Of a DNA stretch of 64,000 nt, positions 1,405-39,010 are shown in pieces. Position numbers and translations under genes: made by a program. The notes beneath the pieces were generated by a model. That model saw only the letters and a list, made by a program, of their open reading frames with translations, ran no database searches and had not been told where the DNA came from. How positions within the stretch are numbered: the stretch's first letter is position 1; each line of letters begins with the position of its first letter. The stretch lies in contig WGBD01000002.1 in the NCBI GenBank assembly GCA_015494465.1, positions 131,683 through 195,682 on the forward strand, given 5' to 3'. This DNA comes from Candidatus Omnitrophota bacterium (GTDB lineage Bacteria > Omnitrophota > Gorgyraeia > S143-82).

Positions 1405-4044
1405 CTAATCCTTCACGAATCCCTCCAACTCTGCGGTCTCCCTGCTCAGGAACCGGGCTTTGCGCAGTTCCCTACACTGTGGGGTGAGACAAAACCACCT
1501 GAAAGGTGGTCTTCCCGCCCAGAGTCCAAACCTATCTCCATCCGCAAAGCCAAATATGTCTCGGTTGCCCTTTTCCCAGACTATCCCATCCTCCCCGTTC
1601 AAGCGCGTGCGCCGAAACCAGACTTTACTATCCGGAAGATCCCGGGCGGAGACGAAGTTCGGGGACTCGTAGTCCACCTCCGCAACTCCATCTCCCTTGA
1701 GGACCACCTTGTAGCGGTAATTCCTCCTGAGGTCGGGAGGGACATCTATGTACTCCAGACCCAAGTCCCTTGCTAAGGAGGGATCTGCCTTGAGGAGCTG
1801 CAGGTACAGGTACAACTCCTCCCAGGGAGACAGATCTCTGCCCGGAAGCAAACTCATCCCCGCAACCTTCGCCGGTTTGGGCTGAAAGCGAAAGGCACCT
1901 ATCAACTGCCACAGCCCGGAACTGTCCTGCCGATAGACCCTGACCTCCAGCGGTGAATCCGGGATCTTCCCCCTGGGCAACGGCCACAACAGCCTGACAG
2001 ACGAGCCCTGCGGTTGGCACAACAGAAATCCAGCAGTGCCCACCACCTCTTCCCCCATAGCGGTCAGGCGAAAGAGGCCCACATCCACGACCGCTCTCCT
2101 GCCGGTATCGGTCTCAATCAGCATCAGGTCACCAAAGGCCATACGGGTGATGCCCGCCTTCCTTACCGACCGCTTTCCATCCTCCACCTCAATCCATACC
2201 CTATATTGCTGGTGAGAGGTAAACTCTACCTCCCTTCCCCAGAGCCGGAGTTTGTGCCGTCTTTCCCTCTTACGGAGGAAGGACAACCTCCCCCGCAGCG
2301 AATCCCCTATCTCCACCTGAAAGGTCATGTCCACTTCTCTTCCAGCAACCCGAACCAGCCCCCTCTCCAACTGCCAGTACCCAAGCGGATCCTCGGGTAG
2401 GGCAGATGTCCCGAAGATCCTCTCCAGCCAATCCCCGGGAAGGGCCACCCTGCCCAGGCCCTTGCAGAGACCCTCCCTGCACTCCAGACTTCCTCCGAGA
2501 TCCCTCCCCCTCAACTGTAGGGTCAATCCCTTCTCGGTAAATACACCCCTCACCCCGCAAGGGATCTTCAGGTTTGTTCCCCTACACATCACCATCATCC
2601 GCCCTTCCAAGGCCAGCCTTCCACCACCAGCGATTAGACGCAGACCGTCCAACCTGACCCCGATCCTCTCCTCTCTCCCCAGACAGAACGCCTCGCCCTC
2701 CCCATCCTTACCGACGAAGACCAATCGGCCTTTTCCCACAGACCAATCCCCGGATAACGCCTCCCCTCCCACCCGCAAGGACTTACCCTCCATCTGGGCA
2801 TAAGGGACAAGTTCTCCGTGTACCTCCACACCCACGGCCCGAACCTCTCCCGCCCGGTAAGTAAACTTCCCCCTGACGCCTAACTGCCTCAAGCCCCGCA
2901 ACCTTCCCTCCCAAAGGAGATCCACCACCTCGCCGTCAAACTTGGCCTGCCTCATCTTCAGGTCCAATCCCTGCCAGCGCACTCGCCTATTCACCTCGAA
3001 GGGATCCGAGAATATGCGCCCGTCCCTCACCCGAACCTGCACCGACCTGCTGAGCCTTACCCTTTCCCCCCCTACTCTCACCTCTGCATCTCCTTCCAAA
3101 GTCCCCTCCACGGTCTCTCCGCTAATGTTAAGGCTCCCCTCCTCTACGGACAGGCCCAGGTCCCTTATGTACCCCGAATCGATGTCTACTACCAAGTCCC
3201 CATCCTCAAGGCAAAGATTACCCCGAAGGACACCACCTATACCCTCGAAGAACAAGACCACCTTGGCCTTAAAGGAATCCACCTTCAGGCCCTTAAACCC
3301 CAACTCCACCTCCTCTATCCTCATCCTGCCCTCAGGAAGCGGTATCTCCTTCTTTTCCGCAAACAGGTAGACCCCCCGCTTCCCCGGGACGAGGTTCTCC
3401 AGCCGGAGGATCACCTCCTTCCCTGCCAGTCTTATCCCCAACTCCCCATCGACTGGATCCATAGAGACGGTCCTCCCTATCCGCAGACGGGTCTTGAGGA
3501 AACGCCAGGAAATCGGTCCCCGAGAGCGCTCTTTCCTTCCTCCAAGGCGAACGCTTACACTCACCTGCCCGAAAGAAAACAGGGGAACCTGCCCGTCGAG
3601 GTCAACCGCCTCTTCTCGTGAGGTAGTGCTTACATCCAGTCCTAGTATCAACCTCGCCTTAACGACTGGGACCTCCAGATCCAGACTTCCGTTAAACACA
3701 TCTATTCGGACGCTATCTATAAGGAGTTCCGCGGACGGGGATAACTGGATCCGGATGGGACGAAGCAGGTAAAAGGCCTTAGCAACGGCGAATTCCCCTC
3801 TTCCCAGACGATACAGGCACAACCCCTCGGGCCTGAAGACCTTTTCTCCAAAGACGGTGGGCAGACAGAGGGCCTCCACTACGGAGACGACCTCACCCTG
3901 CTCCCACAAGGTCACCGGAGAATAGACCACACCCTTACCAAGGGGAAAGGATGCGGGAAACGGATAAAAAAAGGGCCCTGCAAACGCAGGGCCGGAGACA
4001 AACGAACCTATTATCAGAAACAGGGAGGCCAACCTCAAGACCAC
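1405..4044 (-). CDS. large secreted protein of unknown function (signal peptide; possibly AsmA/TamB-like envelope protein)
   Basis: 879 aa continuous ORF. The N-terminus is a hydrophobic signal peptide (LASLFLIIGSFVSGPAFA). The remainder is a repetitive Gly/Arg/Val-rich beta-type sequence. No family could be assigned by eye. Confidence 0.45.
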   Translation of the reverse strand: MVLRLASLFLIIGSFVSGPAFAGPFFYPFPASFPLGKGVVYSPVTLWEQGEVVSVVEALCLPTVFGEKVFRPEGLCLYRLGRGEFAVAKAFYLLRPIRIQLSPSAELLIDSVRIDVFNGSLDLEVPVVKARLILGLDVSTTSREEAVDLDGQVPLFSFGQVSVSVRLGGRKERSRGPISWRFLKTRLRIGRTVSMDPVDGELGIRLAGKEVILRLENLVPGKRGVYLFAEKKEIPLPEGRMRIEEVELGFKGLKVDSFKAKVVLFFEGIGGVLRGNLCLEDGDLVVDIDSGYIRDLGLSVEEGSLNISGETVEGTLEGDAEVRVGGERVRLSRSVQVRVRDGRIFSDPFEVNRRVRWQGLDLKMRQAKFDGEVVDLLWEGRLRGLRQLGVRGKFTYRAGEVRAVGVEVHGELVPYAQMEGKSLRVGGEALSGDWSVGKGRLVFVGKDGEGEAFCLGREERIGVRLDGLRLIAGGGRLALEGRMMVMCRGTNLKIPCGVRGVFTEKGLTLQLRGRDLGGSLECREGLCKGLGRVALPGDWLERIFGTSALPEDPLGYWQLERGLVRVAGREVDMTFQVEIGDSLRGRLSFLRKRERRHKLRLWGREVEFTSHQQYRVWIEVEDGKRSVRKAGITRMAFGDLMLIETDTGRRAVVDVGLFRLTAMGEEVVGTAGFLLCQPQGSSVRLLWPLPRGKIPDSPLEVRVYRQDSSGLWQLIGAFRFQPKPAKVAGMSLLPGRDLSPWEELYLYLQLLKADPSLARDLGLEYIDVPPDLRRNYRYKVVLKGDGVAEVDYESPNFVSARDLPDSKVWFRRTRLNGEDGIVWEKGNRDIFGFADGDRFGLWAGRPPFRWFCLTPQCRELRKARFLSRETAELEGFVKD

Positions 4045-12086: not shown

Positions 12087-12533
12087 CTATATTCTCTCCC
12101 AACCACCGTTATCACAGGTACCGTTGTAAGCGGTCTGCCAGAGATCACCTCCAGTAAGGGCCTTGTAGCACTTGCTCCCAAAGCGCTCGTTCTTGGGCGT
12201 GGCCAGTATGTTGTAACTGTCGGTGCTGATGGAGACCACATTGATGGTGTAGTGCTGAGATCTCAACTCGATACTGCTACCTGCGTTAGAATACCTGCTG
12301 GGCAATAGGTCGTGATTGGCCAAGGTGCTTAACGGATTGGTGTTCGGATACTCGTCCTCCCTTATGAAGTAGGTCTCCAAGGCGGTGGCTATGGTGCGGA
12401 GCTCTCCCAGCGCGGACTTCTCGTTGGCTGCCTTCCTACTACCCACCATGTTGGGTATGGCCACAGCGATGAGGATTGCGATGATCGCAACCACGATCAT
12501 CATCTCGATCAGCGTGAAACCTCTTCTGTCCAT
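12087..12533 (-). CDS. pilA: type IVa major pilin
   Basis: 'MDRRG|FTLIEMMIVVAIIAILIAVAIPN' is a canonical prepilin leader with Phe1 and Glu5. 148 aa with C-terminal cysteines. GAGGAGGGGAGAG lies directly upstream of the ATG at 12533. The ORF track extends the ORF to 12566. Confidence 0.8.
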   Translation of the reverse strand: MDRRGFTLIEMMIVVAIIAILIAVAIPNMVGSRKAANEKSALGELRTIATALETYFIREDEYPNTNPLSTLANHDLLPSRYSNAGSSIELRSQHYTINVVSISTDSYNILATPKNERFGSKCYKALTGGDLWQTAYNGTCDNGGWERI

Positions 12534-12625
12534 CTCTCCCCTCCTCTTTTTAAGGATAAAGCCCAAGAGTGGTTCTTAACCCAAGCCCTCTGCCGACCTC
12601 CGGAGTCCTTTCACCTCCTTTCCGG

Positions 12626-12666: not shown

Positions 12667-12771
12667 CCATCGACCGGCAGCTGGCTGTCCGGACCTCTCT
12701 CCCCCCTTCAGGGCCGAGGCCTTGGGACCCTATAGCTTTGCGCCCCCGCATTCCTGCGGGTTTGCCTTTAT
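12667..12771 (-). ncRNA. c-di-GMP-I (GEMM)-like riboswitch aptamer in the pilA 5' leader
   Basis: Minus-strand RNA: AUAAAGGCAAACC-CGCA-GGAA-UGCG-GGGGCGCAAAGC-UAUAGGGUCC ... GGACAGCC...CCGGUCGAUGG. It aligns with the Vc2 GEMM core: GGGCAAACC-AUUC-GAAA-GAGU-GGGACGCAAAGCC ... CCGAUGG. P1 is capped by a GNRA tetraloop. Confidence 0.5.
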
Positions 12772-12828
12772 CGGTCCAAAATTCAGACTCCAATCCAGCC
12801 AAAGAGCAGTCAATCTCACCCGATTCAA

Positions 12829-12921: not shown

Positions 12922-14145
12922 TTAGAAGTTGACGGTCATGCTGCCGAGGACTTCAAGGGCGGTATCGTCCTTCTCGTAGCAGTCACCCGGCCAGAACGCA
13001 GCGACCGTCAGACCGAACTGGACATCGGAGGTGTAATCCCAAGTGAGATACACATCCAGCTCGTTTCCGAGGTCGTCGTCCTTGTCCACGGAACCGTAAG
13101 CAACATCCTCGTCGGCCCAGAAGTGATAGAAGTCAGCGGACAGGGTGACATCCTCCATCACATCCACCGCACCGCTGAGCTTCAGGGCAAGGATGTTGCT
13201 GTCGAAGTCCACTATCTCACCGATGTCCTGATCGTTGTAAGGGGCATACCAGGCCTCGTAATCCCCAGCGGAAGGATCCTTATCACCGCTCCTGTAGAGG
13301 ACTGCCAGACCGACGCTGGCGTTCTTCTCCGCATCCACCACATAGTTGAGGCTGGCGTCTATCGCCATGGCATCGTAATCGTTCTCACCGTAGTCACCGA
13401 AGAGGTAAGCCACCTCCAAGGCACCGGTGAGCCCTTCCATGATCTCGCCGGTCACCCGACCGCCGATGTACTGACGGGCATCGTCGTTGTTGGCCTCAAC
13501 ATCAGTCCCATCGTAGACATAGTAGAGCTCGATTGCAGCGCCCTTGAGGTCGAAGTTGGTGTCCACGACATAGATGTCGCCTTCACGGCTGTCGGTCAGC
13601 CCCCTGGGACGCAGGTAACCGACCTCTACATTGCCGTTGTCCAAGGCGTAATCCACCACGATCCCGTCGAAGGCGGCCTTCTTGTTCAGGTCCTTGAAGG
13701 TCAGGTTGGAAGCGCTGTCAGGGGTCCCGTCGCCGAGGATCAGCTGGGATCCGAGCTCGTACTTCCAGAACCCTGCCTTCAGGGACACCGGAGCGTAAAG
13801 GAACTCCTTCAACTCCGCATAAGCAGCAGCTGCGTAGACATTGTCCACAGCGTTGCCACCGAACTCCCTCTCGTCCCTGAGGAGGACGGTGGTGGAGACA
13901 TTGTCGGTCAGGTCCGCCTGGACCTTTAACTCGGTGGTGGTCATGAAGATGTCACCTGCCTCGTCGGCAGCATCCTCGTCGTAACCAGCACTGCTGGGCG
14001 CCTGTCCCTGCACGACATAGGCGTTACGATAGACGCCCTTTACCTCTAACTTACCGGAAACCTTTACATTCTGCACCTCGGCATAGGCACCTGCGGCCCA
14101 GAGCGCGACGAGTGCAGAGAGCATTAATATGCTGTACTTGCGCAT
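12922..14145 (-). CDS. outer-membrane beta-barrel porin-like protein
   Basis: 407 aa. Signal peptide 'MRKYSILMLSALVALWAAGAYA'. Alternating amphipathic strands rich in Asp, Tyr and Gly. C-terminal Phe ('...MTVNF'). GGAGG Shine-Dalgarno sequence and flanking strong terminators suggest high expression. Confidence 0.6.
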   Translation of the reverse strand: MRKYSILMLSALVALWAAGAYAEVQNVKVSGKLEVKGVYRNAYVVQGQAPSSAGYDEDAADEAGDIFMTTTELKVQADLTDNVSTTVLLRDEREFGGNAVDNVYAAAAYAELKEFLYAPVSLKAGFWKYELGSQLILGDGTPDSASNLTFKDLNKKAAFDGIVVDYALDNGNVEVGYLRPRGLTDSREGDIYVVDTNFDLKGAAIELYYVYDGTDVEANNDDARQYIGGRVTGEIMEGLTGALEVAYLFGDYGENDYDAMAIDASLNYVVDAEKNASVGLAVLYRSGDKDPSAGDYEAWYAPYNDQDIGEIVDFDSNILALKLSGAVDVMEDVTLSADFYHFWADEDVAYGSVDKDDDLGNELDVYLTWDYTSDVQFGLTVAAFWPGDCYEKDDTALEVLGSMTVNF

Positions 14146-19705: not shown

Positions 19706-21058
19706 TTACCCCACCATCATCCGACCCGAGGCGAATCGCAGTTTGGCCTTCTTGTCCTTGCGCACAAAGGCCAAGGCTATCGTGAGTGGCCCCAACCTAC
19801 CTATCAACATCAGTAGGCTTAGGACAAGCTTGCCTGCTCGGCTCAGGCTCGGGGTGATGCCGGTGCTCAGTCCCACCGTCCCGAATGCAGAGACAGCCTC
19901 GAAAAAGAGACGATCCAAACCAAATCTTGGATCGCTAAGAGAGAGAAAAAATGTGCCTAAAAACAGCATCGTCAAGCCGAACAGGAAGATGGTCCAGGCC
20001 TTGTGCACCACATCCGCAACCAGCGTCCTGCCAAAGACCACCACGTCTTGATGGCCTCTGAGGTACCTCACCGCGGATAGAACCAGAACGGAAAAGGTGG
20101 TCACCTTTATCCCCCCTCCCGTAGAACCGGACGACGCCCCCACGAACATAAGAAACATCAAAAGCCACTTCCCAGCAAGGCTGATGTTCCCTATCTCCAG
20201 ACTGTTAAACCCCGCAGTCCTCGCGTTGACAGACTGGAACATGGCGGATAGGATCCTCTCTTTAAGAGGAAGGGCGGAAAGCATGGTCCTTTCGGTCATC
20301 ATCAATCCGAACGCTCCTACTAGGAACAAGAGCAGATAAGTCACCAGGACTACCTTCGACTGCAATCTAAGTCTCCTACTTTGCCTGCTAAAAACCGCAA
20401 AGAGGTCTTGCAAAACCACGAAACCCAATCCCCCACAGACTATCAACACGGTCATAACCACATTAACGAAGGCATCCCCCCTCCAGCGCGTAAAGCTGTC
20501 GGAAAAGAGGGAAAAACCGGCGTTACAAAATGCGGAGACGGAGTGAAATAGACCGTAATAAAGCGATCTAATCCCAAATCCCTGACGCATCGCCCAGTAG
20601 GCAGAGAGCAAGAACACCCCGATGGCCTCTAAGGCAAAGGTCGCCTTAAAGATGAACCCAATAGAGGACTTAAGCTCCCTTATGCTCTCCTGGTCCATGA
20701 GCTGCCCCAATGCTACCATCTGATGGGACCTTACCTGTCTACCCATACTCACCAAGAGAGAGGCAGAGAAGGTCATTATCCCTAGGGCACCCAGTTGGAT
20801 CAAGGTGAGGATGACGAGCTGGCCCATTAAGGTAAAGTCCTTACCGGTATCCAGGACGACCAGTCCGGTGACGCAGACGGCAGAGGTAGCGGTGAAAAGG
20901 GCATTCACGAACCCCAGCCTGGTGTGGGCCATACCTGGTAACGAAAGGAGAAGAGTCCCCCCGCTGATCAACAACAAGAAGGTCAACAATAAGAAGAGCT
21001 CAGGGCGAGAATAAAGCCTGATTATTATGCGCTCGATAACCGGCCACCTATACATCAC
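19706..21058 (-). CDS. trkH: TrkH/KtrB family potassium transporter
   Basis: 450 aa polytopic membrane protein. 'SSGSTGGGIKVTTFSVL' is a selectivity-filter-like motif. Confidence 0.85.
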   Translation of the reverse strand: MMYRWPVIERIIIRLYSRPELFLLLTFLLLISGGTLLLSLPGMAHTRLGFVNALFTATSAVCVTGLVVLDTGKDFTLMGQLVILTLIQLGALGIMTFSASLLVSMGRQVRSHQMVALGQLMDQESIRELKSSIGFIFKATFALEAIGVFLLSAYWAMRQGFGIRSLYYGLFHSVSAFCNAGFSLFSDSFTRWRGDAFVNVVMTVLIVCGGLGFVVLQDLFAVFSRQSRRLRLQSKVVLVTYLLLFLVGAFGLMMTERTMLSALPLKERILSAMFQSVNARTAGFNSLEIGNISLAGKWLLMFLMFVGASSGSTGGGIKVTTFSVLVLSAVRYLRGHQDVVVFGRTLVADVVHKAWTIFLFGLTMLFLGTFFLSLSDPRFGLDRLFFEAVSAFGTVGLSTGITPSLSRAGKLVLSLLMLIGRLGPLTIALAFVRKDKKAKLRFASGRMMVG

Positions 21059-22145
21059 GCAAGAGCTCTTGGACTATCCTCCCGGCCACATCCCCAGAAG
21101 GCAGGGATCGAAACCCCTCTTTCAGCTGGGCTAGACGGTCCGGATCCCTCTTCAGCTCTAAGACCTTTCTGGCCAGATCCAGGCTATCACCAGCGGACAA
21201 GGCCACATTGGAAGAAATCAAGAAGTCTCTGTTTCCCTCCTCTTGACCTGGAATAGGATCGACCAGTATCATGGGGACCCGCTTGACGATGGCCTCCGAG
21301 ACAACCAATCCCCCTGGTTTGGTGATCAGGAGATCCGCAGCGCTCATAACCAAGTCCATCTCGTCGATCATCCCGTAGACCTTCAGCCCCTCAGCTATAT
21401 CCTGAAGAGGTTCGAGTTCCTTCCGCAACCTTACATTTTTCCCACAACCAACGATAATCTGCACCTCCCGCATCAATATCTTTACCGCATCTATCACCAT
21501 GTTGGGCCGTATTGCATTGGCTAGGATCAGGATGGTAAACTCGTCTTTCAACCCTAATTGGGCCAAGACCGACTCCCGGGGCAAGGTCCGTAGAAAGGCA
21601 GAAGGAACGGGTATCCCGCTCACGCTGACCTTCTCCTTTTCCACCCCCATTTCTACCAGTTCCCCCAATGCACTCTCACACCCAACGAAGTACTTATCCA
21701 CCCCGCTCGACACCCAAAACCTGTGAACCACATAGTCAGTTACTACGCAGACCAATCTACACCTGCACCCGGTCTTGGTCTTGTATCGAGAAAGTACATC
21801 GTTGGCCATGAAGTGGGTGCTCACTATGAGCTCCGGCTGGGTGGCAGTGAGATACTCCTCCAGGCGAGCGGTTACCAAGGCGTTGAGAAGGGAATGCCAG
21901 GAACTGATCAATATCCCCTTGGGATGGTTTGATAAATCAAATGCAAGTCGCCAGAGCCACTTCGCCCGGTTTACCACCCATTGATATCCGTCTCTATAGA
22001 GGGTCCTGAACCAGGATGGGGTGAAGTCGAGGATGTCCAAGAGGGCTACATCCGATCGGCCCGCGTTGATAAAGGACTCGTACAAAGCCTGCCCCGCACG
22101 GCGGTGCCCATTTCCAGCGGAGGCATAGAGGATCAAAATGGACAT
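21048..22145 (-). CDS. GT28-family glycosyltransferase (MGDG synthase / diacylglycerol glucosyltransferase-like)
   Basis: 'ILILYASAGNGHRRAGQAL' at the N-terminus. C-terminal 'LITKPGGLVVSEAI' is typical of MurG/MGDG-synthase-like enzymes. Confidence 0.7.
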   Translation of the reverse strand: MSILILYASAGNGHRRAGQALYESFINAGRSDVALLDILDFTPSWFRTLYRDGYQWVVNRAKWLWRLAFDLSNHPKGILISSWHSLLNALVTARLEEYLTATQPELIVSTHFMANDVLSRYKTKTGCRCRLVCVVTDYVVHRFWVSSGVDKYFVGCESALGELVEMGVEKEKVSVSGIPVPSAFLRTLPRESVLAQLGLKDEFTILILANAIRPNMVIDAVKILMREVQIIVGCGKNVRLRKELEPLQDIAEGLKVYGMIDEMDLVMSAADLLITKPGGLVVSEAIVKRVPMILVDPIPGQEEGNRDFLISSNVALSAGDSLDLARKVLELKRDPDRLAQLKEGFRSLPSGDVAGRIVQELLRDV

Positions 22146-22160
22146 CTCTGGATGCCAAGG

Positions 22161-22475
22161 CTACAAGACGAACTTCTCTGCCATGTAACCTATCACCGGT
22201 AAGGACTTGTACTCCCCGGTCATGGCGTTGATCAGGCCAAAGACCACCGCCAGACCAAACACGAGCCTACCCAGGACTAGCAAGAATAGGCCCAACACCG
22301 GGAGGACCGACAAGGCCCAGACCAGAACCTCCAGCACGAATAAGACCAGCCCTTGTTTCGCGTGGAAGCGGATGAACTCGTCGTCCTTGGCCTTAAACAC
22401 CGACCACAGACTCAACGGCCCCAGGTAGGCCAACATTGCCCAGGCCTTTGATTCCAGACTCACCAAGTTTTCCAT
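22161..22475 (-). CDS. DUF4870-like small membrane protein
   Basis: 'AYLGPLSLWSVFKAKDDEFIRFHAKQGLVLFVLE' followed by two TM helices. The internal start avoids overlap with the upstream gene. Confidence 0.5.
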   Translation of the reverse strand: MENLVSLESKAWAMLAYLGPLSLWSVFKAKDDEFIRFHAKQGLVLFVLEVLVWALSVLPVLGLFLLVLGRLVFGLAVVFGLINAMTGEYKSLPVIGYMAEKFVL

Positions 22476-22497: not shown

Positions 22498-23598
22498 TTA
22501 TCCCACATTCAACAGGGAATCCAGCTCCCCGTAAGGGTTCTTCTCCTTCATCGGGTTGTTGGGATCGTCCATCCACTTGCCGTCCACCACGAACCTGTAC
22601 CGGTACCGTCCAGGCGGTAAGGCCATGCTCTTTACCCAAACCCCATTCCTCTTCTCGAGCTTGGAATCCTCCCCTATCCTCCAACCGTTGAAATCACCAG
22701 CGATGTACACCTCCTTCACATTAGGATCGGGGAATATGAACTCCACCATCCTCAACGGCATGTCCCGCCCCATCTCCTTGGAAGGCGCAGAAGGGGACTG
22801 GGGTTTCCAGCCCTTGTCCAAGGGTTCCGGGGCCTCCAGATAAGATAGAAGCTCCCGGGCAAGGCTGAGGTAATCCTTTGCTCCCCGGCAGTACTTGTCG
22901 TAATACAGGGCAGGCTTACCGTGACTGGCAGATTCGCGGAGTTTGACATTGATGTGGATTATCGTCTTGCAGACCTTGTCACCAAATCTTTCCTTTATGG
23001 CATCCTGTACATAATAAGAGTACTGGAGTCGGGAATCAAACATCGTCATAAGTATACGGTAGTCCACATTGTGGTTGAGTCTCTCTCTCACCAGATTTAT
23101 GATGTCCAGGAGCTGATTCACACCGTTGAAGGAGAAGAAGCTCATCTCCAGAGGTATGAGAACCTCGTTAGCAGAGCGCAGGGCATTTATAGTGAGGAAT
23201 CCTAGATTCGGAGGGCAGTCTATCAAAACATAATCGTATTGTCCCTTCATCTGGCTCAAGGCAGACCAAAGCCTGGTTTCCCTGCCTATCTCGTCAGAAA
23301 GCTCCTGCTCCAGGGTACTCAAGAGTATGGAAGAAGGGACCAGGAATAGGTTCTCCGATACCTGCTGAACGACGGAGTCGAGGTCCTTTTTCTGCTGACT
23401 CAACGAGGAAAGGACATCGTAAATAGAGAACTCTATCTTATCAGGATCAAATCCCAAGCCACTGGTAGCGTGGGCCTGGGGATCGAAGTCTATCACTAGC
23501 ACTTTCTTCCCTAGGTAAGCCAAGGACGCGGATAGATTCACTGTGGTGGTGGTCTTACCGCAACCGCCTTTTTGATTGGCAACAGCTATCACATACAT
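22498..23598 (-). CDS. ParA/Soj-type ATPase fused to C-terminal CBM48 / AMPK-beta glycogen-binding domain
   Basis: Deviant Walker A 'KGGCGKTT', 'IDFDPQAHAT' and Walker B 'LIDCPPNLG' place the N-terminal ~260 aa in the ParA family. After a Pro/Ser linker, 'KEVYIAGDFNGW...GRYRYRFVVDGKWMDDPNNP' matches the AMPK-beta GBD/CBM48 signature. Confidence 0.8.
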   Translation of the reverse strand: MYVIAVANQKGGCGKTTTTVNLSASLAYLGKKVLVIDFDPQAHATSGLGFDPDKIEFSIYDVLSSLSQQKKDLDSVVQQVSENLFLVPSSILLSTLEQELSDEIGRETRLWSALSQMKGQYDYVLIDCPPNLGFLTINALRSANEVLIPLEMSFFSFNGVNQLLDIINLVRERLNHNVDYRILMTMFDSRLQYSYYVQDAIKERFGDKVCKTIIHINVKLRESASHGKPALYYDKYCRGAKDYLSLARELLSYLEAPEPLDKGWKPQSPSAPSKEMGRDMPLRMVEFIFPDPNVKEVYIAGDFNGWRIGEDSKLEKRNGVWVKSMALPPGRYRYRFVVDGKWMDDPNNPMKEKNPYGELDSLLNVG

Positions 23599-23635
23599 CT
23601 CTGCCCCCCTGTCTTTGTTGAAGAAGCCCCCCTAA

Positions 23636-24271
23636 TCAAGTGCCCTTTACGAAGCGTATGTTATCGACATATAACACGCCTTTCGGCGTCGACGCATTCC
23701 ACTTGTCGACCACGAAGCCTATCTGCTTTACATCACTCCAGCTAGTTATGCCCGAGACCTCTTTCAGAGGTATTACCACATCTTTCCACCGCGTGCCCAA
23801 AGAGGGGACACCCACCTCTCCGACCTCTCTGAACTGATTTACGAATTCTATCCTTATACTGTGGTTCTCGCCCTTGGAGAACCGTGCCCTAAAGGCCAAG
23901 GCCTCGTAATCGGACACATCGGCGCCTTTTATATTCACATAATAGGTCAACACCGATCCTGCCTTAGGATCGGAAAAGTCGAATCCAATGGAGATTGGAC
24001 CGGACCCGCTGTTTATCATAAGCTCGCTGTGGGCCTCCAATCCAGGGGTAACAGGACCACGGAAGAGTGCCCCCGACCTCCAGCCTACCAGCAATATCAC
24101 CAGCAGAAAGGCATTTGCTACTAAGAGAGGCAGATTGAGATTTATAGTACGCATCCCCCCTACGGAAACCCCTGAGTGTTTCACCTCTTTGCCCTCTCCG
24201 GTTGAAAAGTAGGTCCTGGCGAGTATATCCGCCACCCTCTTGTTCGCCATTACATTCTTCTTATAACACAC
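23636..24271 (-). CDS. hypothetical membrane-anchored protein with C-terminal beta-sandwich (CBM/CIA30-like) domain
   Basis: Basic N-terminus (MANKRVADILAR), one TM helix, then a ~150 aa beta-rich domain ending 'GVLYVDNIRFV'. Co-oriented and directly upstream of the ParA-CBM48 gene. Confidence 0.45.
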   Translation of the reverse strand: MCYKKNVMANKRVADILARTYFSTGEGKEVKHSGVSVGGMRTINLNLPLLVANAFLLVILLVGWRSGALFRGPVTPGLEAHSELMINSGSGPISIGFDFSDPKAGSVLTYYVNIKGADVSDYEALAFRARFSKGENHSIRIEFVNQFREVGEVGVPSLGTRWKDVVIPLKEVSGITSWSDVKQIGFVVDKWNASTPKGVLYVDNIRFVKGT

Positions 24272-28647: not shown

Positions 28648-29994
28648 TTACTTGCTTGCTTCCAACCAATCCCTTCCTATCCTAACATCCACCTCGAGGG
28701 GCACGCTGAGCCTTACCGCTTCCGTCATCGCACTAACGATCAAGGCTCTCAATTCTTCCAACTCCTCCGGGTGGACATCGAACAATAACTCGTCGTGTAT
28801 CTGCAAGATCATTCGGCTACGATAGCCCTTCATCCGCCGATGGAGATTCAACATCGCAATCTTCATTATCTCCGCTGCGCTGCCCTGTATTACGGTGTTC
28901 ACCGCTGCTCGTTCTCCAAAGGATCGCCTAACCCTATTCTTGCTCCTCAACTCCGGCACATACCGCCGGTGCCCAAACATCGTCTCTACCCATCCCCTTT
29001 TGCGGGCATCGGCAAGGGTATCGGAGATGAACCTCTTTACCCCAGGGTACATCTGAAAGTATCTGTCGATAAAATCCTTGGCCACCCCGTGGGTTAAGTC
29101 CACATCCTCTGCCAAGCCTTGAGGCGTGATCCCGTAAACTATGCCGAAGTTCACCCGCTTGGCGATGTCCCTCTCCTTGGGCCCCACATCCTCTCTTGAG
29201 ATGCCAAAGAGCAGACCCGCTGTTGAAGTATGGATGTCTTCGCCTCGCTCAAATGCAGATATCAACCCGGGGTCCTGCGAGAGATGGGCAAGGACCCTCA
29301 ACTCTATCTGAGAATAATCAGCGCTTAATATGTACCCTCCGGGAAACCGAGAGATAAAGGCAGATCTGATCTGCCGGCCCCACAAACTTCGAATCGGGAT
29401 TGTCTGGAGATTTGGCTCTACCGCAGTTATTCGCCCAGTCTGGGTACTTACCAAGGAAAACTTCGTATAGATTTTACCATCTTCTCGCACCGCTGACAAC
29501 AGGGGAATGATGTAGGAATTCAAGACCTTCGTCAACTCCCGATAATCCAAGAGATGTTCCACTACCGGATGCAGACCTACCAACTTCCGCAGGGTCTTCT
29601 CACTGGTGGAGGGATGGGTCTTGGCCCGCTTTATCACCGGCAATCCCAGTTTCTCGTATAGGACAAAGGCGATTTGGCGAGGAGAATTCAGGTTTACTCT
29701 GACCGGGAGAAGGTCTTCTATCTTCCTCTCCAGGTCATCCACTGCATCCTGCACCTCCTCCTGCAAGTCCTCCAATCGCTCCCTATCTACCTTGAGCCCT
29801 GCGGACTCCATATCCTTTAGCACATCTAAAAGAGGTAAGTCGATATCCAACAGGGCCATACGCTGACCTGGAGATAAAGAAGCAAAAACCTTTTCTGGAT
29901 CCTGCCAGGAGGAGAGGTCTCTTCCCGAGACGAAATAAAGGAGGTCTAGGGGGATCTTTTTACCTTCGAACTCAAAAAATTCCGCTCTCTCCAT
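28648..29994 (-). CDS. polA: DNA polymerase I, polymerase (family A palm/fingers/thumb) portion
   Basis: 'YRELTKVLNSYIIPL', 'LSADYSQIELRVLAHLS', 'RDIAKRVNFGIVYGI' and 'QIHDELLFDV' are the A, B and C family-A polymerase motifs. Only ~100 aa precede the polymerase core. Confidence 0.8.
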   Translation of the reverse strand: MERAEFFEFEGKKIPLDLLYFVSGRDLSSWQDPEKVFASLSPGQRMALLDIDLPLLDVLKDMESAGLKVDRERLEDLQEEVQDAVDDLERKIEDLLPVRVNLNSPRQIAFVLYEKLGLPVIKRAKTHPSTSEKTLRKLVGLHPVVEHLLDYRELTKVLNSYIIPLLSAVREDGKIYTKFSLVSTQTGRITAVEPNLQTIPIRSLWGRQIRSAFISRFPGGYILSADYSQIELRVLAHLSQDPGLISAFERGEDIHTSTAGLLFGISREDVGPKERDIAKRVNFGIVYGITPQGLAEDVDLTHGVAKDFIDRYFQMYPGVKRFISDTLADARKRGWVETMFGHRRYVPELRSKNRVRRSFGERAAVNTVIQGSAAEIMKIAMLNLHRRMKGYRSRMILQIHDELLFDVHPEELEELRALIVSAMTEAVRLSVPLEVDVRIGRDWLEASK

Positions 29995-30856
29995 CGATCC
30001 TCTCTGGAAACTGGCGCTTAAGAAAGGACCTAAAACCTAATCTCTGGTAGAAAATATACAGACTATCATCGGGGGTCTTCTTTAAGGGCACGAGTCCTAC
30101 CGAAATCGACAGATCCGTCTTTACCTTTACCAACTCAAGATTCCTGTAGACCAGATCCCGGCTCTCCTCCAAGGCCTTTCGCAACCGCTCCGGAAGGGAA
30201 CCGAGATTAGCGTATATTCCGTCTATGGTCCCGTACTCTCTCAATAGCTTCACCGCGGTCTTTTTGCCGATACCTGGTACGCCCGGAATGTTGTCAGAAG
30301 TGTCACCCAACATAGCAAGGTAGTCCGGGATCTGTGCCGGCCTCACCCCGACCTTCTCCAGCACCTTGACCTCGTCCAGGACCTCCAATTTCCCGTTCTT
30401 ATAGTCGCAGAAATAGACCCCCTCCCCTACCAATTGCAGGAGATCCTTATCCGAACTGACTATGTAGAAGTCAAGGGAATTCTTTTCCCGTCGAAGCGAG
30501 GAAACGATCGAACCTATAAGGTCGTCCGCCTCGTATCCTGCAAGCCTGAGCGTACCAACATCGCAGGCGGACAAAAACTCCTCTATCAAGGGCAACTGGG
30601 AATAGAACTCGTCGGGCATAGTTACCCTATTGGCCTTGTACTCAGTATATACCTCCTCCCTGAAGGTGGGCTCCTTTGAATCCAGACAGGCAACTCCATA
30701 ATCCGGATCGAGATCTCCTATCAATCTCCAGAACATGTTCACGAATCCGTAGACCGCATTCGTCGGTTGCCCGTTCGGCCCAGACATAAAGGGAAGCGCA
30801 TAGTAGGCCCGATATGCGAGAGAGGAGACATCCAGGAGTAAAACCTTACTCTTCAC
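29972..30856 (-). CDS. DNA polymerase I 5'-3' exonuclease (FEN-like) domain as a separate ORF
   Basis: 'LLLDVSSLAYRAYYAL', 'YEADDLIGSI' and 'VSSDKDLLQLV' are 5'-nuclease motifs, and a helix-3-turn-helix is present. The ORF overlaps the polymerase ORF by 23 nt in a different frame. Confidence 0.8.
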   Translation of the reverse strand: MKSKVLLLDVSSLAYRAYYALPFMSGPNGQPTNAVYGFVNMFWRLIGDLDPDYGVACLDSKEPTFREEVYTEYKANRVTMPDEFYSQLPLIEEFLSACDVGTLRLAGYEADDLIGSIVSSLRREKNSLDFYIVSSDKDLLQLVGEGVYFCDYKNGKLEVLDEVKVLEKVGVRPAQIPDYLAMLGDTSDNIPGVPGIGKKTAVKLLREYGTIDGIYANLGSLPERLRKALEESRDLVYRNLELVKVKTDLSISVGLVPLKKTPDDSLYIFYQRLGFRSFLKRQFPERIDGESGIF

Positions 30857-36986: not shown

Positions 36987-37991
36987 TTACCAGATGACAT
37001 CTCTCAGGCGCTTGGCCCCAAGCTCCGGGGTGGTAGGAACCACATAGAAACCAGACCCCCACTCGAAACCGGCCACCCTGGATATCCGAGGCATTATCTC
37101 TACGTGCCAGTGGTAATAATCGTACATCCCCTTGAGTGGAGCCACATGGATCACGAAGTTGTACGGGGGATTGTGCAATAATAGCTTAAGCCGAATTAGG
37201 GCGTCCTTCAGGGCCTTAGCCAACTCCATGGCCTGGTCGTCACTCATCTCTCTGAAATCGCAACAGTGATACTTTGGCATAATCCACATCTCGAAGGGGA
37301 ATCTGGAACTAAAAGGACAAAAGGTGATAAAGAAGGGGTTCTCGTAGACTACCCGTTCCCTTTCCTCCTTCTCTTGTCGCCACATGTCGCAGAATATACA
37401 CCGCTCCCGATACTCGTAATAGGCCTTCGACCCTTCCAGCTCCTCTTTCACATTCTTGGGTATCAAGGGCATGGCTATCAACTGAGAGTGATCGTGTTCG
37501 ATAGAGGCCCCAGCGATGGCACCAAAGTTCTTGAAGATCAAGATGTACTCGAACCTCGGATCCTGACTCAAGTCGTTCATCCTGGACCTATAGGCCTTTA
37601 TCACCTCGAACACCTCTTCAAAAGAAAGATCCGCTAGGGTCTTGAAATGATCAGGCGTCTCAATCACCACCTCGTGGGCACCTATACCGTTTGCTATGTC
37701 GTAAAGCCCTATCGGCCTGCTCTCTAGGTCCCCTTCTATCACCAAGGCGGGGAACTTGTTGGGAACCACCCTAACCTGCCAACCCGGACCGTTGGCCTCA
37801 CCACCGTTTGGCCTATAGGCGTATACCTCCGGTGGGGTGGCTGATTCCTTTCCTGGACAGAAAAAGCACTTTTCGGGATGCCTTTTCTCTACTGGAGGAT
37901 AGAGCTGATGGAACTGATCTACATCCAAGGGCTCTTCACTGGTAACTATCACCCACCTACCAACTATTGGATCTCGTCTAAATTCCGTCAT
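36987..37991 (-). CDS. GalT-like HIT-family nucleotidyltransferase (galactose-1-P uridylyltransferase / ADP-glucose phosphorylase-like), intact active site
   Basis: 'CFFCPGKE' zinc motif, 'FKNFGAIAGASIEHDHSQLIA' (HxHxQ motif), and a second half-barrel with 'HWHVEI'. Confidence 0.75.
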   Translation of the reverse strand: MTEFRRDPIVGRWVIVTSEEPLDVDQFHQLYPPVEKRHPEKCFFCPGKESATPPEVYAYRPNGGEANGPGWQVRVVPNKFPALVIEGDLESRPIGLYDIANGIGAHEVVIETPDHFKTLADLSFEEVFEVIKAYRSRMNDLSQDPRFEYILIFKNFGAIAGASIEHDHSQLIAMPLIPKNVKEELEGSKAYYEYRERCIFCDMWRQEKEERERVVYENPFFITFCPFSSRFPFEMWIMPKYHCCDFREMSDDQAMELAKALKDALIRLKLLLHNPPYNFVIHVAPLKGMYDYYHWHVEIMPRISRVAGFEWGSGFYVVPTTPELGAKRLRDVIW

Positions 37992-39010
37992 ACCTCAACC
38001 TCTATGGATCTCAAAAACTCGGCCGAATCCTCGGGAAGCATCGGATTAATGTAAAATCCCGTACCCCATTCGAATCCTGCTATCCTGGTCAATTGAGGGA
38101 TTATCTCTATGTGCCAGTGGAAGTCCTCCTCCAGCGTTATCCAGTATCCAGGCCTGTGTTTCTTTCTAAATGGCGCGGTAAAGAAGACCCAACTATACGG
38201 CGGGTCGTTGAGACCTATTTTTATCTTCAACAGCACCCGTTTTAGCATCTCCGAAAGAGGACGAAATTCCCCTGGATCGAGTTTGTAGAAGTCACAGAGA
38301 TGCCTTTTAGGTAATATCCAAGTCTCAAAAGGAAACCTACTGGCAAAGGCAGAAATGGCAATAAACGCCTCGTTCTCAGCCACTATTCTTACCTTTTGCT
38401 CCTTCTCTTGACGGATGATGTCACAAAAGATGCATCGCTCGTGATAGTTGTAATACCTACGGGCCCCGGTAAGCTTTTCCTTTACCCGCTTGGGATTTAC
38501 GGGCAAGGCTATTATGTTGGACCGGCTGTGGAATATGTTCCCTCTCTGGCGCTCACCTTCGTAGTTCTTGTATATCAGCGCATACCTTAGTCGCTCGTCC
38601 TGCTCTAGGTCTCGAATGCGCAATGCGTAAACGGATAAGACCTTATCTATCGTCTCTAAAGGCAGATCAGCGATGTTCAAGACATGCTCGGGTGTCTCCA
38701 ATACCAATTCGTGGGCACCTATCCCGTTCATTACATCGTATATACCGTGGGCCCGACGATCGATCTCTCCCTCTATTTGCAATAAACGATTCTTCCTCGG
38801 AGTCACCAAGACATGCCACCGTTCGGGATTGGAAGAATCGCGAAGGGAAAAGATCTCTGGATAATCCTCTTTGTGGGCACAGAATTCGCACTCTCCTTCG
38901 GTGGATTTATCATTCTGAGAAAGGACAAAGACATCCCTCGGGCGTTTAGACCTCTCGGTGCTTATTATGACCCACCGACCTACGACAGGATCCTTGCGAA
39001 GTTCAGGCAT
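37988..39010 (-). CDS. GalT-like HIT-family paralog with degenerate catalytic motif
   Basis: Same fold markers ('CEFCAHKE', 'HWHIEI', 'RIAGFEWGTGFY'). The catalytic loop reads 'IFHSRSNIIA' (H-S-R-S-N) instead of HxHxQ. Confidence 0.7.
   Translation of the reverse strand: MPELRKDPVVGRWVIISTERSKRPRDVFVLSQNDKSTEGECEFCAHKEDYPEIFSLRDSSNPERWHVLVTPRKNRLLQIEGEIDRRAHGIYDVMNGIGAHELVLETPEHVLNIADLPLETIDKVLSVYALRIRDLEQDERLRYALIYKNYEGERQRGNIFHSRSNIIALPVNPKRVKEKLTGARRYYNYHERCIFCDIIRQEKEQKVRIVAENEAFIAISAFASRFPFETWILPKRHLCDFYKLDPGEFRPLSEMLKRVLLKIKIGLNDPPYSWVFFTAPFRKKHRPGYWITLEEDFHWHIEIIPQLTRIAGFEWGTGFYINPMLPEDSAEFLRSIEVEV

Follow-up and report, generated by a model that had tools for sequence, protein, structure and literature searches.

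A ParA/Soj-type ATPase with a fused CBM48 domain and a membrane-anchored partner form a conserved Omnitrophota gene module that may organise glycogen granules

This report concerns a locus in a 64,000-nucleotide (nt) stretch of DNA from a Candidatus Omnitrophota bacterium (assembly GCA_015494465.1, contig WGBD01000002.1, positions 131,683 to 195,682; hereafter the window), in which a gene for a ParA-type ATPase fused to a glycogen-binding CBM48 domain (ParA-CBM48) follows a gene for a membrane-anchored partner protein. A single pair of genes had been pointed out here from the letters alone (the original prediction); the pair is real and, judged by sequence and gene order across related genomes, belongs to a phylum-wide conserved module, the fusion being found in other phyla as well. 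The features of the module are as follows.

23636..24250, minus strand: partner gene, 204 amino acids (aa) from the ATG at 24250 (MANKRV...); the open reading frame (ORF) can be extended to a GTG at 24271
24206..24250, minus strand: partner residues 1-15, basic amphipathic N-terminal helix, candidate ParA-interacting or ATPase-activating peptide
24074..24133, minus strand: partner residues 40-59, single transmembrane (TM) helix, from helix prediction and hydropathy
23648..24025, minus strand: partner residues 76-201, carbohydrate-binding module (CBM)-like beta-jelly-roll sandwich, predicted extracytoplasmic
22498-23598, minus strand: ParA-CBM48 ORF, 366 aa, stop codon at 22498-22500
22843..23598, minus strand: ParA/Soj-type ATPase domain, residues 1-252 (Pfam AAA_31, E 5e-59)
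22753..22842, minus strand: disordered Pro/Ser/Lys-rich linker, residues 253-282 (predicted local distance difference test, pLDDT, <50 for residues 254-280)
22501..22752, minus strand: C-terminal CBM48/AMPK1_CBM beta-sandwich, residues 283-366 (PF16561, 52.7 bits)
22161..22475, minus strand: DUF4870 small polytopic membrane protein, 104 aa (PF09685, 26.9 bits against a cut-off of 25)

The genes are closely spaced: the likely ATG of the partner (24250) lies 28 nt past the uvrD stop, ParA-CBM48 starts 37 nt beyond the partner stop codon, and the DUF4870 gene starts 22 nt beyond the ParA-CBM48 stop with a perfect AAGGAGG ribosome-binding site in front.

Residues 1-250 of ParA-CBM48 matched AAA_31, CbiA and further ParA/MinD-type models in Pfam, and matches in NCBIfam were confined to ParA-type models, each under its equivalog cut-off. 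The deviant Walker A motif KGGCGKTT was located at residues 10-17, Walker A' at D37/D39 and Walker B at D127, and K10, K15, D37, D39 and D127 were unchanged across 121 relatives. With all residues needed for catalysis present in the alignment, this is the complete ParA/Soj ATPase core that had been described. In the alignment with Soj, K219 fell on the R/K of the NV[RK]L motif, at a position that we take to be required for non-specific DNA binding in Soj, and was K or R in 121 of 121 relatives; K235, R238 and K241 were invariant. A terminal amphipathic membrane-targeting helix was absent, because the CBM occupies the C-terminus.

The AlphaFold model of the protein (mean pLDDT 81) contained a confident ParA fold over residues 1-252 (pLDDT mostly 80-96), and Foldseek matched it to a Soj model with an E-value of 1.8e-27 and a target-normalised template-modelling score of 0.89, which assigns the domain to the ParA/Soj fold. 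Identity to solved chains in the Foldseek search was 46% for the Soj model (9a6n_A), 41% for ParA 8ray (phmmer E 4e-55), 41% for H. pylori Soj (6iub), 38-39% for T. thermophilus Soj (2bek) and 22-23% for McdA; identity to the Selenomonas Soj sequence was 49%. On these comparisons the ATPase is classed as Soj-derived. It resembles the chromosomal Soj/ParA proteins of B. subtilis, T. thermophilus and H. pylori in fold, in identity over the whole ATPase (38-46%), in the signature lysine of the deviant Walker A, in the Walker A' and B aspartates and in the basic residue at K219. It differs from them in having no adjacent ParB, in the added disordered linker and CBM48, and in its partner, which is a bitopic membrane protein and not a parS-binding CTPase.

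The C-terminal module was likewise recovered as a CBM48 domain. PF16561 (AMPK1_CBM) covered residues 293-365 with 52.7 bits against a cut-off of 26.8; PF02922 (CBM_48) was below threshold in the window protein (17.4 against 22.4 bits), was recorded for most relatives and passed its threshold in relatives with long linkers. The last 80 residues aligned end to end with the solved CBMs of AMPK beta2 (4y0g, E 2e-10) and beta1 (1z0m/1z0n, E ~3e-9), and further solved CBM48 matches were pullulanase 5ot1, a neopullulanase and the starch phosphatase SEX4 (3nme/4pyh). Beta-strands were confidently predicted over residues 283-365 of the AlphaFold model, preceded by the low-confidence segment that fits the proposed Pro/Ser/Lys linker. 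Because the top 50 matches of the full-length Foldseek search were ATPase matches only, the assignment of the CBM fold rests on the sequence matches to solved CBMs and on predicted secondary structure.

Four positions of the putative sugar-binding surface were compared with AMPK beta1. W306 and W342 (aligned with W100 and W133) were invariant in 121 of 121 relatives, R335 (aligned with K126) was R in 120 and K in 1, and D360 (aligned with N150) was D in 97 and N in 24; the AMPK residues are those which we take, from the CBM-cyclodextrin structure, to contact the sugar. Judged from these alignments, the CBM48 domain is genuine and its sugar-binding platform is kept. The likeness to the CBM48 domains of AMPK beta, SEX4 and pullulanase thus extends over the full domain, the beta-sandwich and the contact residues (W, W, R, D/N); unlike those, the present domain sits on a P-loop positioning ATPase and not on a kinase scaffold, phosphatase or glycoside hydrolase. 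CBM48-like modules close to that of ParA-CBM48 also occur as 18 tandem copies in a 1,812-aa hypothetical protein of Candidatus Epulopiscium viviparus (P0248), and a 1,409-aa protein (P0386) holds 7 copies of a CBM48-like module.

The reading frame is continuous across the ParA and CBM48 domains in the window, and an identical protein was found on three independent contigs. The 120 best database relatives (52-97% identity) were all ~360 aa long and all carried PF16561; the named ones among them were 'AAA family ATPase' or 'chromosome partitioning protein' of Candidatus Omnitrophota. A search of a species-representative genome collection, with the C-terminal half of the protein (ATPase end, linker and CBM) as the probe, gave 362 confirmed stretches, and since GTDB R232 lists ~705 Omnitrophota species representatives (preprint 10.64898/2026.06.07.730766), the gene comes close to a core gene of the phylum. 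The best 80 of these 362 loci were titled Omnitrophota/Omnitrophica or, for 17 third-party metagenome-assembled genomes (MAGs), 'uncultured Planctomycetales/Planctomycetia'. Among 1.84 billion 50%-identity representatives searched, the ParA-then-CBM order was present in 135 of the best 150, and long-linker forms, with AAA_31 and a C-terminal AMPK1_CBM according to Pfam, were named Nitrospirota and Leptospirillia. The proposed survey of relatives therefore found the fusion to be kept.

Variability within the family is greatest in the linker (entropy 3.0 bits; 34-52 aa between residues 250 and 292 in the 121 relatives), which in distant relatives ranges over 8-361 aa, is acidic or Ala/Pro-rich and holds no added domain by Pfam. 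Because the fusion persists through the 362 stretches and the 135 of 150 representatives with linkers of such different length, selection targets the tethering and not the linker sequence; what it preserves is a Soj-like ATPase with its catalytic residues, an intact glucan-binding platform and a tether joining both. In a crude neighbour-joining tree (a quick distance tree), canonical Soj-like ATPases, i.e., Selenomonas Soj and its neighbours, separated from the fused ones, a separation that, at the level of sequence distances, agrees with a specialised paralogue. A few sequences within the fused group lack the CBM; their nearest neighbours in this tree were fused proteins, which fits secondary loss or fragmentary gene calls. 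One of the carriers, Ca. Velamenicoccus archaeovorus LiM, has a closed genome (L078, NZ_CP019384.1: 977056-997520), in which the gene lies at ~987 kb of a 1,974,201-bp chromosome, almost exactly at the midpoint of the record; provided that position 1 is the origin, this is the terminus region and not the usual origin-proximal position of parAB.

Related loci were read over 10 kb on either side of the ParA-CBM48 gene. Directly upstream and on the same strand, an orthologue of the partner was present in 78 of the 79 ParA-CBM48 loci with room for it, at a median gap of 21 nt, so that the co-oriented upstream ORF of the original prediction is a real gene. A search with the single partner sequence returned 8 close relatives, and a query built from a five-sequence alignment returned a family of at least 1,056 members, all hypothetical proteins and all without a Pfam domain. 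The partner founds an unannotated Omnitrophota family.

The basic N-terminus of the partner, which had been likened to the activating peptides of ParA partner proteins, is conserved: 127 sequences share, with little variation, the consensus MxKKEIYEHLAxIYLD, M1, K3, K4, A11 and Y14 are among the invariant or nearly invariant columns, and a helix is predicted at residues 4-15. The N-terminal peptide of the window protein, MANKRVADILARTYF, is invariant within the window's own clade. As in McdAB-type systems, the ATPase gene is thus accompanied by a gene for a partner with a conserved, positively charged N-terminal peptide, as far as its sequence tells.

The single TM segment (median hydropathy 2.16 over 19 aa in the family) is flanked by a median of 7 K+R on its N side against 1 on its C side, with an N-side bias in 121 of 127 sequences. 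An N-in/C-out topology is predicted on this basis, as a family-level assignment only, because the flanking charge of the window protein itself is balanced (2 against 2). The outer domain was predicted to have a jelly-roll fold, in agreement with the one-TM, outward-facing CBM/CIA30-like sandwich that had been proposed. In Pfam and NCBIfam the window protein gave no match to a domain family at E <=0.01, and 5-8 of the 127 members matched CBM_17_28, CBM_11 or Agarase_CBM, all sub-threshold. The sandwich shares only 14-16% identity with CBM11/CBM30/CBM8 and CIA30 and reaches no Pfam model at threshold; unlike these domains, it follows an N-terminal TM anchor that carries a conserved, predicted cytoplasmic peptide.

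In the usual Omnitrophota order, an Alginate_exp-type barrel gene is followed by a glycoside hydrolase family 57 (GH57) gene, the partner, ParA-CBM48, in some loci DUF4870, and a gene for a Lys-rich protein of ~134 aa. Among 81 loci with room for it, the DUF4870 family occupies the +1 position in 47, and 8 of the 12 loci without a GH57 neighbour belong to these. PF09685 (DUF4870) bears the newer Pfam name MamF_MmsF; a link to magnetosomes was rejected, as the score is near threshold, the protein is a generic DUF4870 member, the window holds no other mam genes, and the family accompanies the module in those 47 of 81 Omnitrophota loci. In the clade of the window (the window and L005-L009) the block is rearranged, with uvrD before the partner and the porin orthologue now at 12922-14145, and the partner, ParA-CBM48 and DUF4870 genes stay together through the rearrangement. 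Since these three genes remain linked when the locus rearranges, we take them as the functional core.

Of the 59 loci in which the upstream sequence reaches far enough, 47 have the GH57 gene two genes before ParA-CBM48. The solved structure that matches its product best is that of a GH57 amylopullulanase (E ~1e-81), an enzyme that cleaves alpha-1,4 and alpha-1,6 bonds (PMC12106739), and a reading of the neighbour as a glycogen branching enzyme was dropped on that account. The alignment begins at residue 1, so the protein has no leader and is presumably cytoplasmic. By its sequence assignment the GH57 neighbour supports an alpha-glucan context to a limited extent, limited because the same syntenic block also holds pyruvate phosphate dikinase (PPDK), a sigma factor and a phosphoribosyltransferase (PRTase), and the linkage may in part be inherited synteny.

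The ~134-aa protein (for example L003:11452-11892) is encoded at the +1 or +2 position in 61 of 78 loci and is absent from the window. It combines a histone-H1-like Lys/Ala-rich N-terminal tail with a small C-terminal beta-barrel (a weak match to EF-Tu domain 2), and from this composition it may be nucleoid-associated. A polysaccharide-export cluster lies 3-9 genes downstream of the module in ~10 loci (L010, L017, L023, L030, L039, L044, L046, L071), with Poly_export/Wza, Wzz-GNVR, an AAA_22 ExeA-like ATPase and a 262-aa bacterial tyrosine kinase (BY-kinase)-like P-loop protein. In the window, a GT28/MGDG-synthase-like glycosyltransferase gene (21048-22145, minus strand) begins 15 nt past DUF4870, a position seen only in the window and L008; its best NCBIfam match is diglucosyl-diacylglycerol synthase, below the cut-off.

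No ParBc domain was found among the window proteins in profile searches, and no ORF with a ParB-box motif was found in 1.15 Mb made up of the window and 85 related loci, where the lone match of the ParB-box regular expression, in a 71-aa ORF, was spurious. The claim that ParB is missing thus extends to the related loci, and the adjacent parB/spo0J of chromosomal ParABS is lacking from the window and all 85 of them. The 64-kb window contains no other ParA/MinD gene and the related loci no second Soj; downstream 'ParA-family' ORFs in 9 loci were rejected as canonical Soj, being BY-kinase-like and standing beside Wzz and Wza genes. ParB, Soj and partitioning are unmentioned in the phylum-wide Omnitrophota papers.

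ParA/MinD ATPases are general positioning machines whose known cargos include DNA, carboxysomes, chemoreceptor arrays, flagella, the divisome and conjugation machinery. Members of the family bind their matrix as ATP dimers, many contact the N-terminal region of a partner, leading to hydrolysis and release, and ParA-like members bind DNA via a positively charged C-terminal surface (PMC11407121). Against this background we tentatively favour, at somewhat less than even likelihood, a reading of the locus as a conserved, co-transcribed module in which a Soj-derived ParA with a tethered alpha-glucan-binding domain organises glycogen granules and the partner regulates it. The ATP-bound ParA-CBM48 dimer would sit on the nucleoid, and its two tethered CBM48 domains would hold cytoplasmic glycogen or alpha-glucan particles, so that the granules would be held on the nucleoid, spread over it and inherited with it. 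From the inner membrane, the basic N-terminal helix of the partner would contact the ATPase and stimulate ATP hydrolysis and release, with either a gradient from periphery to interior or a cycle of turnover as the outcome, and the outward CBM-like domain of the partner, together with the DUF4870 protein, may couple this cycle to the envelope.

The alpha-glucan link in the original prediction is backed by the GH57 neighbour and by the report that Omnitrophota MAGs encode glycogen synthesis (PMC8542988); the positioning or segregation of granules stays conjectural, and the anatomy departs from the adaptor model. McdA-McdB, PpfA-TlpT and PomXYZ are alike in concept, in that a ParA-type ATPase serves a non-DNA, metabolic cytoplasmic cargo with a partner bearing a basic N-terminal peptide. 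Unlike in McdA-McdB and ParABS, cargo recognition would reside in the ATPase itself and not in the partner, and unlike McdB, the partner is predicted to be membrane-anchored (TM 40-59; N-in in 121 of 127) and not cargo-bound, so it would be no cargo-sited adaptor. With the putative activator on the membrane and not on the cargo, the arrangement departs from the classical ratchet/adaptor model.

Several points weigh against granule positioning. The putative activator is membrane-anchored, with its CBM-like domain predicted outside the cytoplasm, a mismatch with the cargo-borne activator of a Brownian ratchet, and the similarity of the ATPase to canonical Soj is of the degree usual for true orthologues. 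The GH57 linkage falls within a long syntenic block of housekeeping genes (PPDK, sigma factor, PRTase) and may reflect synteny inertia; GH57 has been lost in the window clade, neither it nor the Lys-rich gene lies within the 64 kb, and glg genes were not found among the window proteins. Most Omnitrophota are reported to be ultra-small cells (PMC10066038), for which a need for active positioning is not obvious.

A wider version of the proposal is doubtful. It would combine a polysaccharide storage granule as cargo, cargo binding fused in cis, a regulating peptide presented from the inner membrane and an outer CBM-like domain that reads an envelope or external glycan, making up a trans-envelope link between surface, nucleoid and carbon reserve across Omnitrophota and in Nitrospirota and Leptospirillia. 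If true, this would be the first ParA/MinD system with a polysaccharide storage granule as cargo.

The sequences themselves are public under generic names; new are the fusion of a polysaccharide-binding module to a ParA/MinD positioning ATPase and the membrane partner. The original prediction knew of no described ParA-CBM48 fusion, and our searches of the full-text literature, of a 2024 ParA/MinD family review and of the phylum-wide Omnitrophota papers returned no description of such a protein, of any ParA with glycogen as its target or of the family to which the partner belongs; the words glycogen, carbohydrate and granule are absent from that review. To our knowledge, the placement and inheritance of bacterial glycogen granules are not understood, and the findings suggest that bacterial cells contain a hitherto undescribed system by which granules of storage sugar are organised. 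Since ParA-CBM48, with its own alpha-glucan-binding domain, is a small, soluble and easily expressed protein, it makes granule placement directly testable. It would also exemplify a new principle of design, in which the motor itself recognises the cargo and the regulator sits on the membrane. The module also approaches core status in an uncultivated and poorly understood phylum, whose bacteria are ultra-small and possibly predatory, and brings a new protein family of >1,000 members that is currently without annotation.

Among the alternatives, we first consider that the CBM48-like domain binds not storage glycogen but a protein or another ligand, the module then positioning some other cargo, for example a membrane complex of the partner and DUF4870. 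The CBM of AMPK beta also has a regulatory role through contacts with protein, two polar sugar contacts differ here from AMPK (K126 to R, and N150 to D in most members), and the window clade has no nearby alpha-glucan gene. The substitutions are conservative, however, with Asn at the N150 position in 24 of 121 relatives, and both stacking tryptophans are invariant; the nearest solved relatives (AMPK-beta, pullulanase, neopullulanase, SEX4) are all alpha-glucan binders, and most relatives have the GH57 neighbour. On balance we consider this explanation unlikely.

It is also conceivable, though we rate it as quite improbable, that the gene is the lineage's own chromosomal ParA/Soj moved away from parB, with the CBM48 linking chromosome segregation or the control of replication to the state of the glycogen reserve, in the role of an AMPK-beta-like sensor or anchor. 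The 46% identity to 9a6n_A and 49% to Selenomonas Soj, the best structural matches, which are all chromosomal Soj/ParA, the near-core status of the gene (362 stretches against ~705 species representatives) and the lack of a second Soj in the related loci read all speak for it. It is opposed by the absence of an adjacent parB from the window and 85 loci, by the constant partner, which is a membrane protein and not a DNA-binding ParB, and by the V. archaeovorus gene, which at ~987 kb of 1,974 kb is not at the usual origin-proximal site if numbering starts at the origin. The fused clade also stands apart from canonical Soj in the crude tree and includes members from Nitrospirota and Leptospirillia, lineages expected to possess canonical ParAB as well.

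BcsQ, a ParA/MinD-family ATPase tied to polysaccharide and membrane partners, suggests a further explanation, that of an organiser of an envelope machine for making, exporting or importing alpha-glucan, in which the CBM48 would hold the cytoplasmic polymer and the outer domain of the partner the periplasmic polymer. Two members of the three-gene core code for membrane proteins, the sandwich of the partner is predicted to face away from the cytoplasm, and many loci carry, three genes upstream, a gene for an AlgE-like (Alginate_exp) outer-membrane barrel. The GT28 glycolipid synthase gene follows the module in the window, ~10 loci have genes for Wza, Wzz and a BY-kinase a few genes further downstream, and the Pfam CBP_BcsQ cut-off was passed (46 bits against 21.3). 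No synthase, transporter or secretion gene is consistently adjacent, however, and the porin and extracellular polysaccharide genes are lost or displaced on rearrangement with the three-gene core intact. The NCBIfam BcsQ equivalog TIGR03371 scored 78.3 bits, far below its cut-off of 157.85, so that the protein does not classify as BcsQ; solved BcsQ chains are 22-24% identical (Foldseek with the ATPase-CBM model) against 38-46% for Soj; the Soj-type basic residue is kept and the membrane-targeting helix absent. BcsQ itself has no CBM, and no bcs genes were present in any locus examined. We hold this explanation to be rather remote. An assembly or gene-calling artefact that merged a ParA gene with a separate CBM48 gene is rejected with near certainty, given the continuous frame, the three independent contigs and the hundreds of full-length orthologues from independent assemblies, a closed genome among them.

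Outside the module, the rest of the window is co-directional housekeeping chromosome, with every sizeable gene on the minus strand, a G+C content (GC) of ~53% and negative GC skew throughout. Its other genes include rho, ispF, coaE, pol I, ilvBN, pgk, V-ATPase subunits and a type IV pilus cluster, as well as genes of pyrimidine, purine and amino-acid biosynthesis. An 879-aa ORF at 1405-4044 (minus strand) was given nothing by Pfam at E <=0.01. A c-di-GMP-I-GGC riboswitch (RF03167, 61 bits against a gathering score of 59) was located at 12672-12775 (minus strand), directly upstream of a type IV pilin gene at 12087-12566 (minus strand; N_methyl and ComP_DUS), whose cluster holds PilM, PilO, more N_methyl proteins and a 564-aa ORF without a family match. 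DNA polymerase I looks split into a 294-aa 5'-3' exonuclease ORF (29972-30856, minus strand) and a 448-aa ORF (28648-29994, minus strand) that overlap by 23 nt; the latter matches the DNA_pol_A polymerase domain only, no 3'-5' exonuclease domain being detected, and this could be a natural split or a frameshift. Tandem, overlapping genes of the GalT/HIT superfamily at 36987-37991 and 37988-39010 (both minus strand; GalP_UDP_transf, DUF4921) adjoin the V-type ATPase subunit genes.

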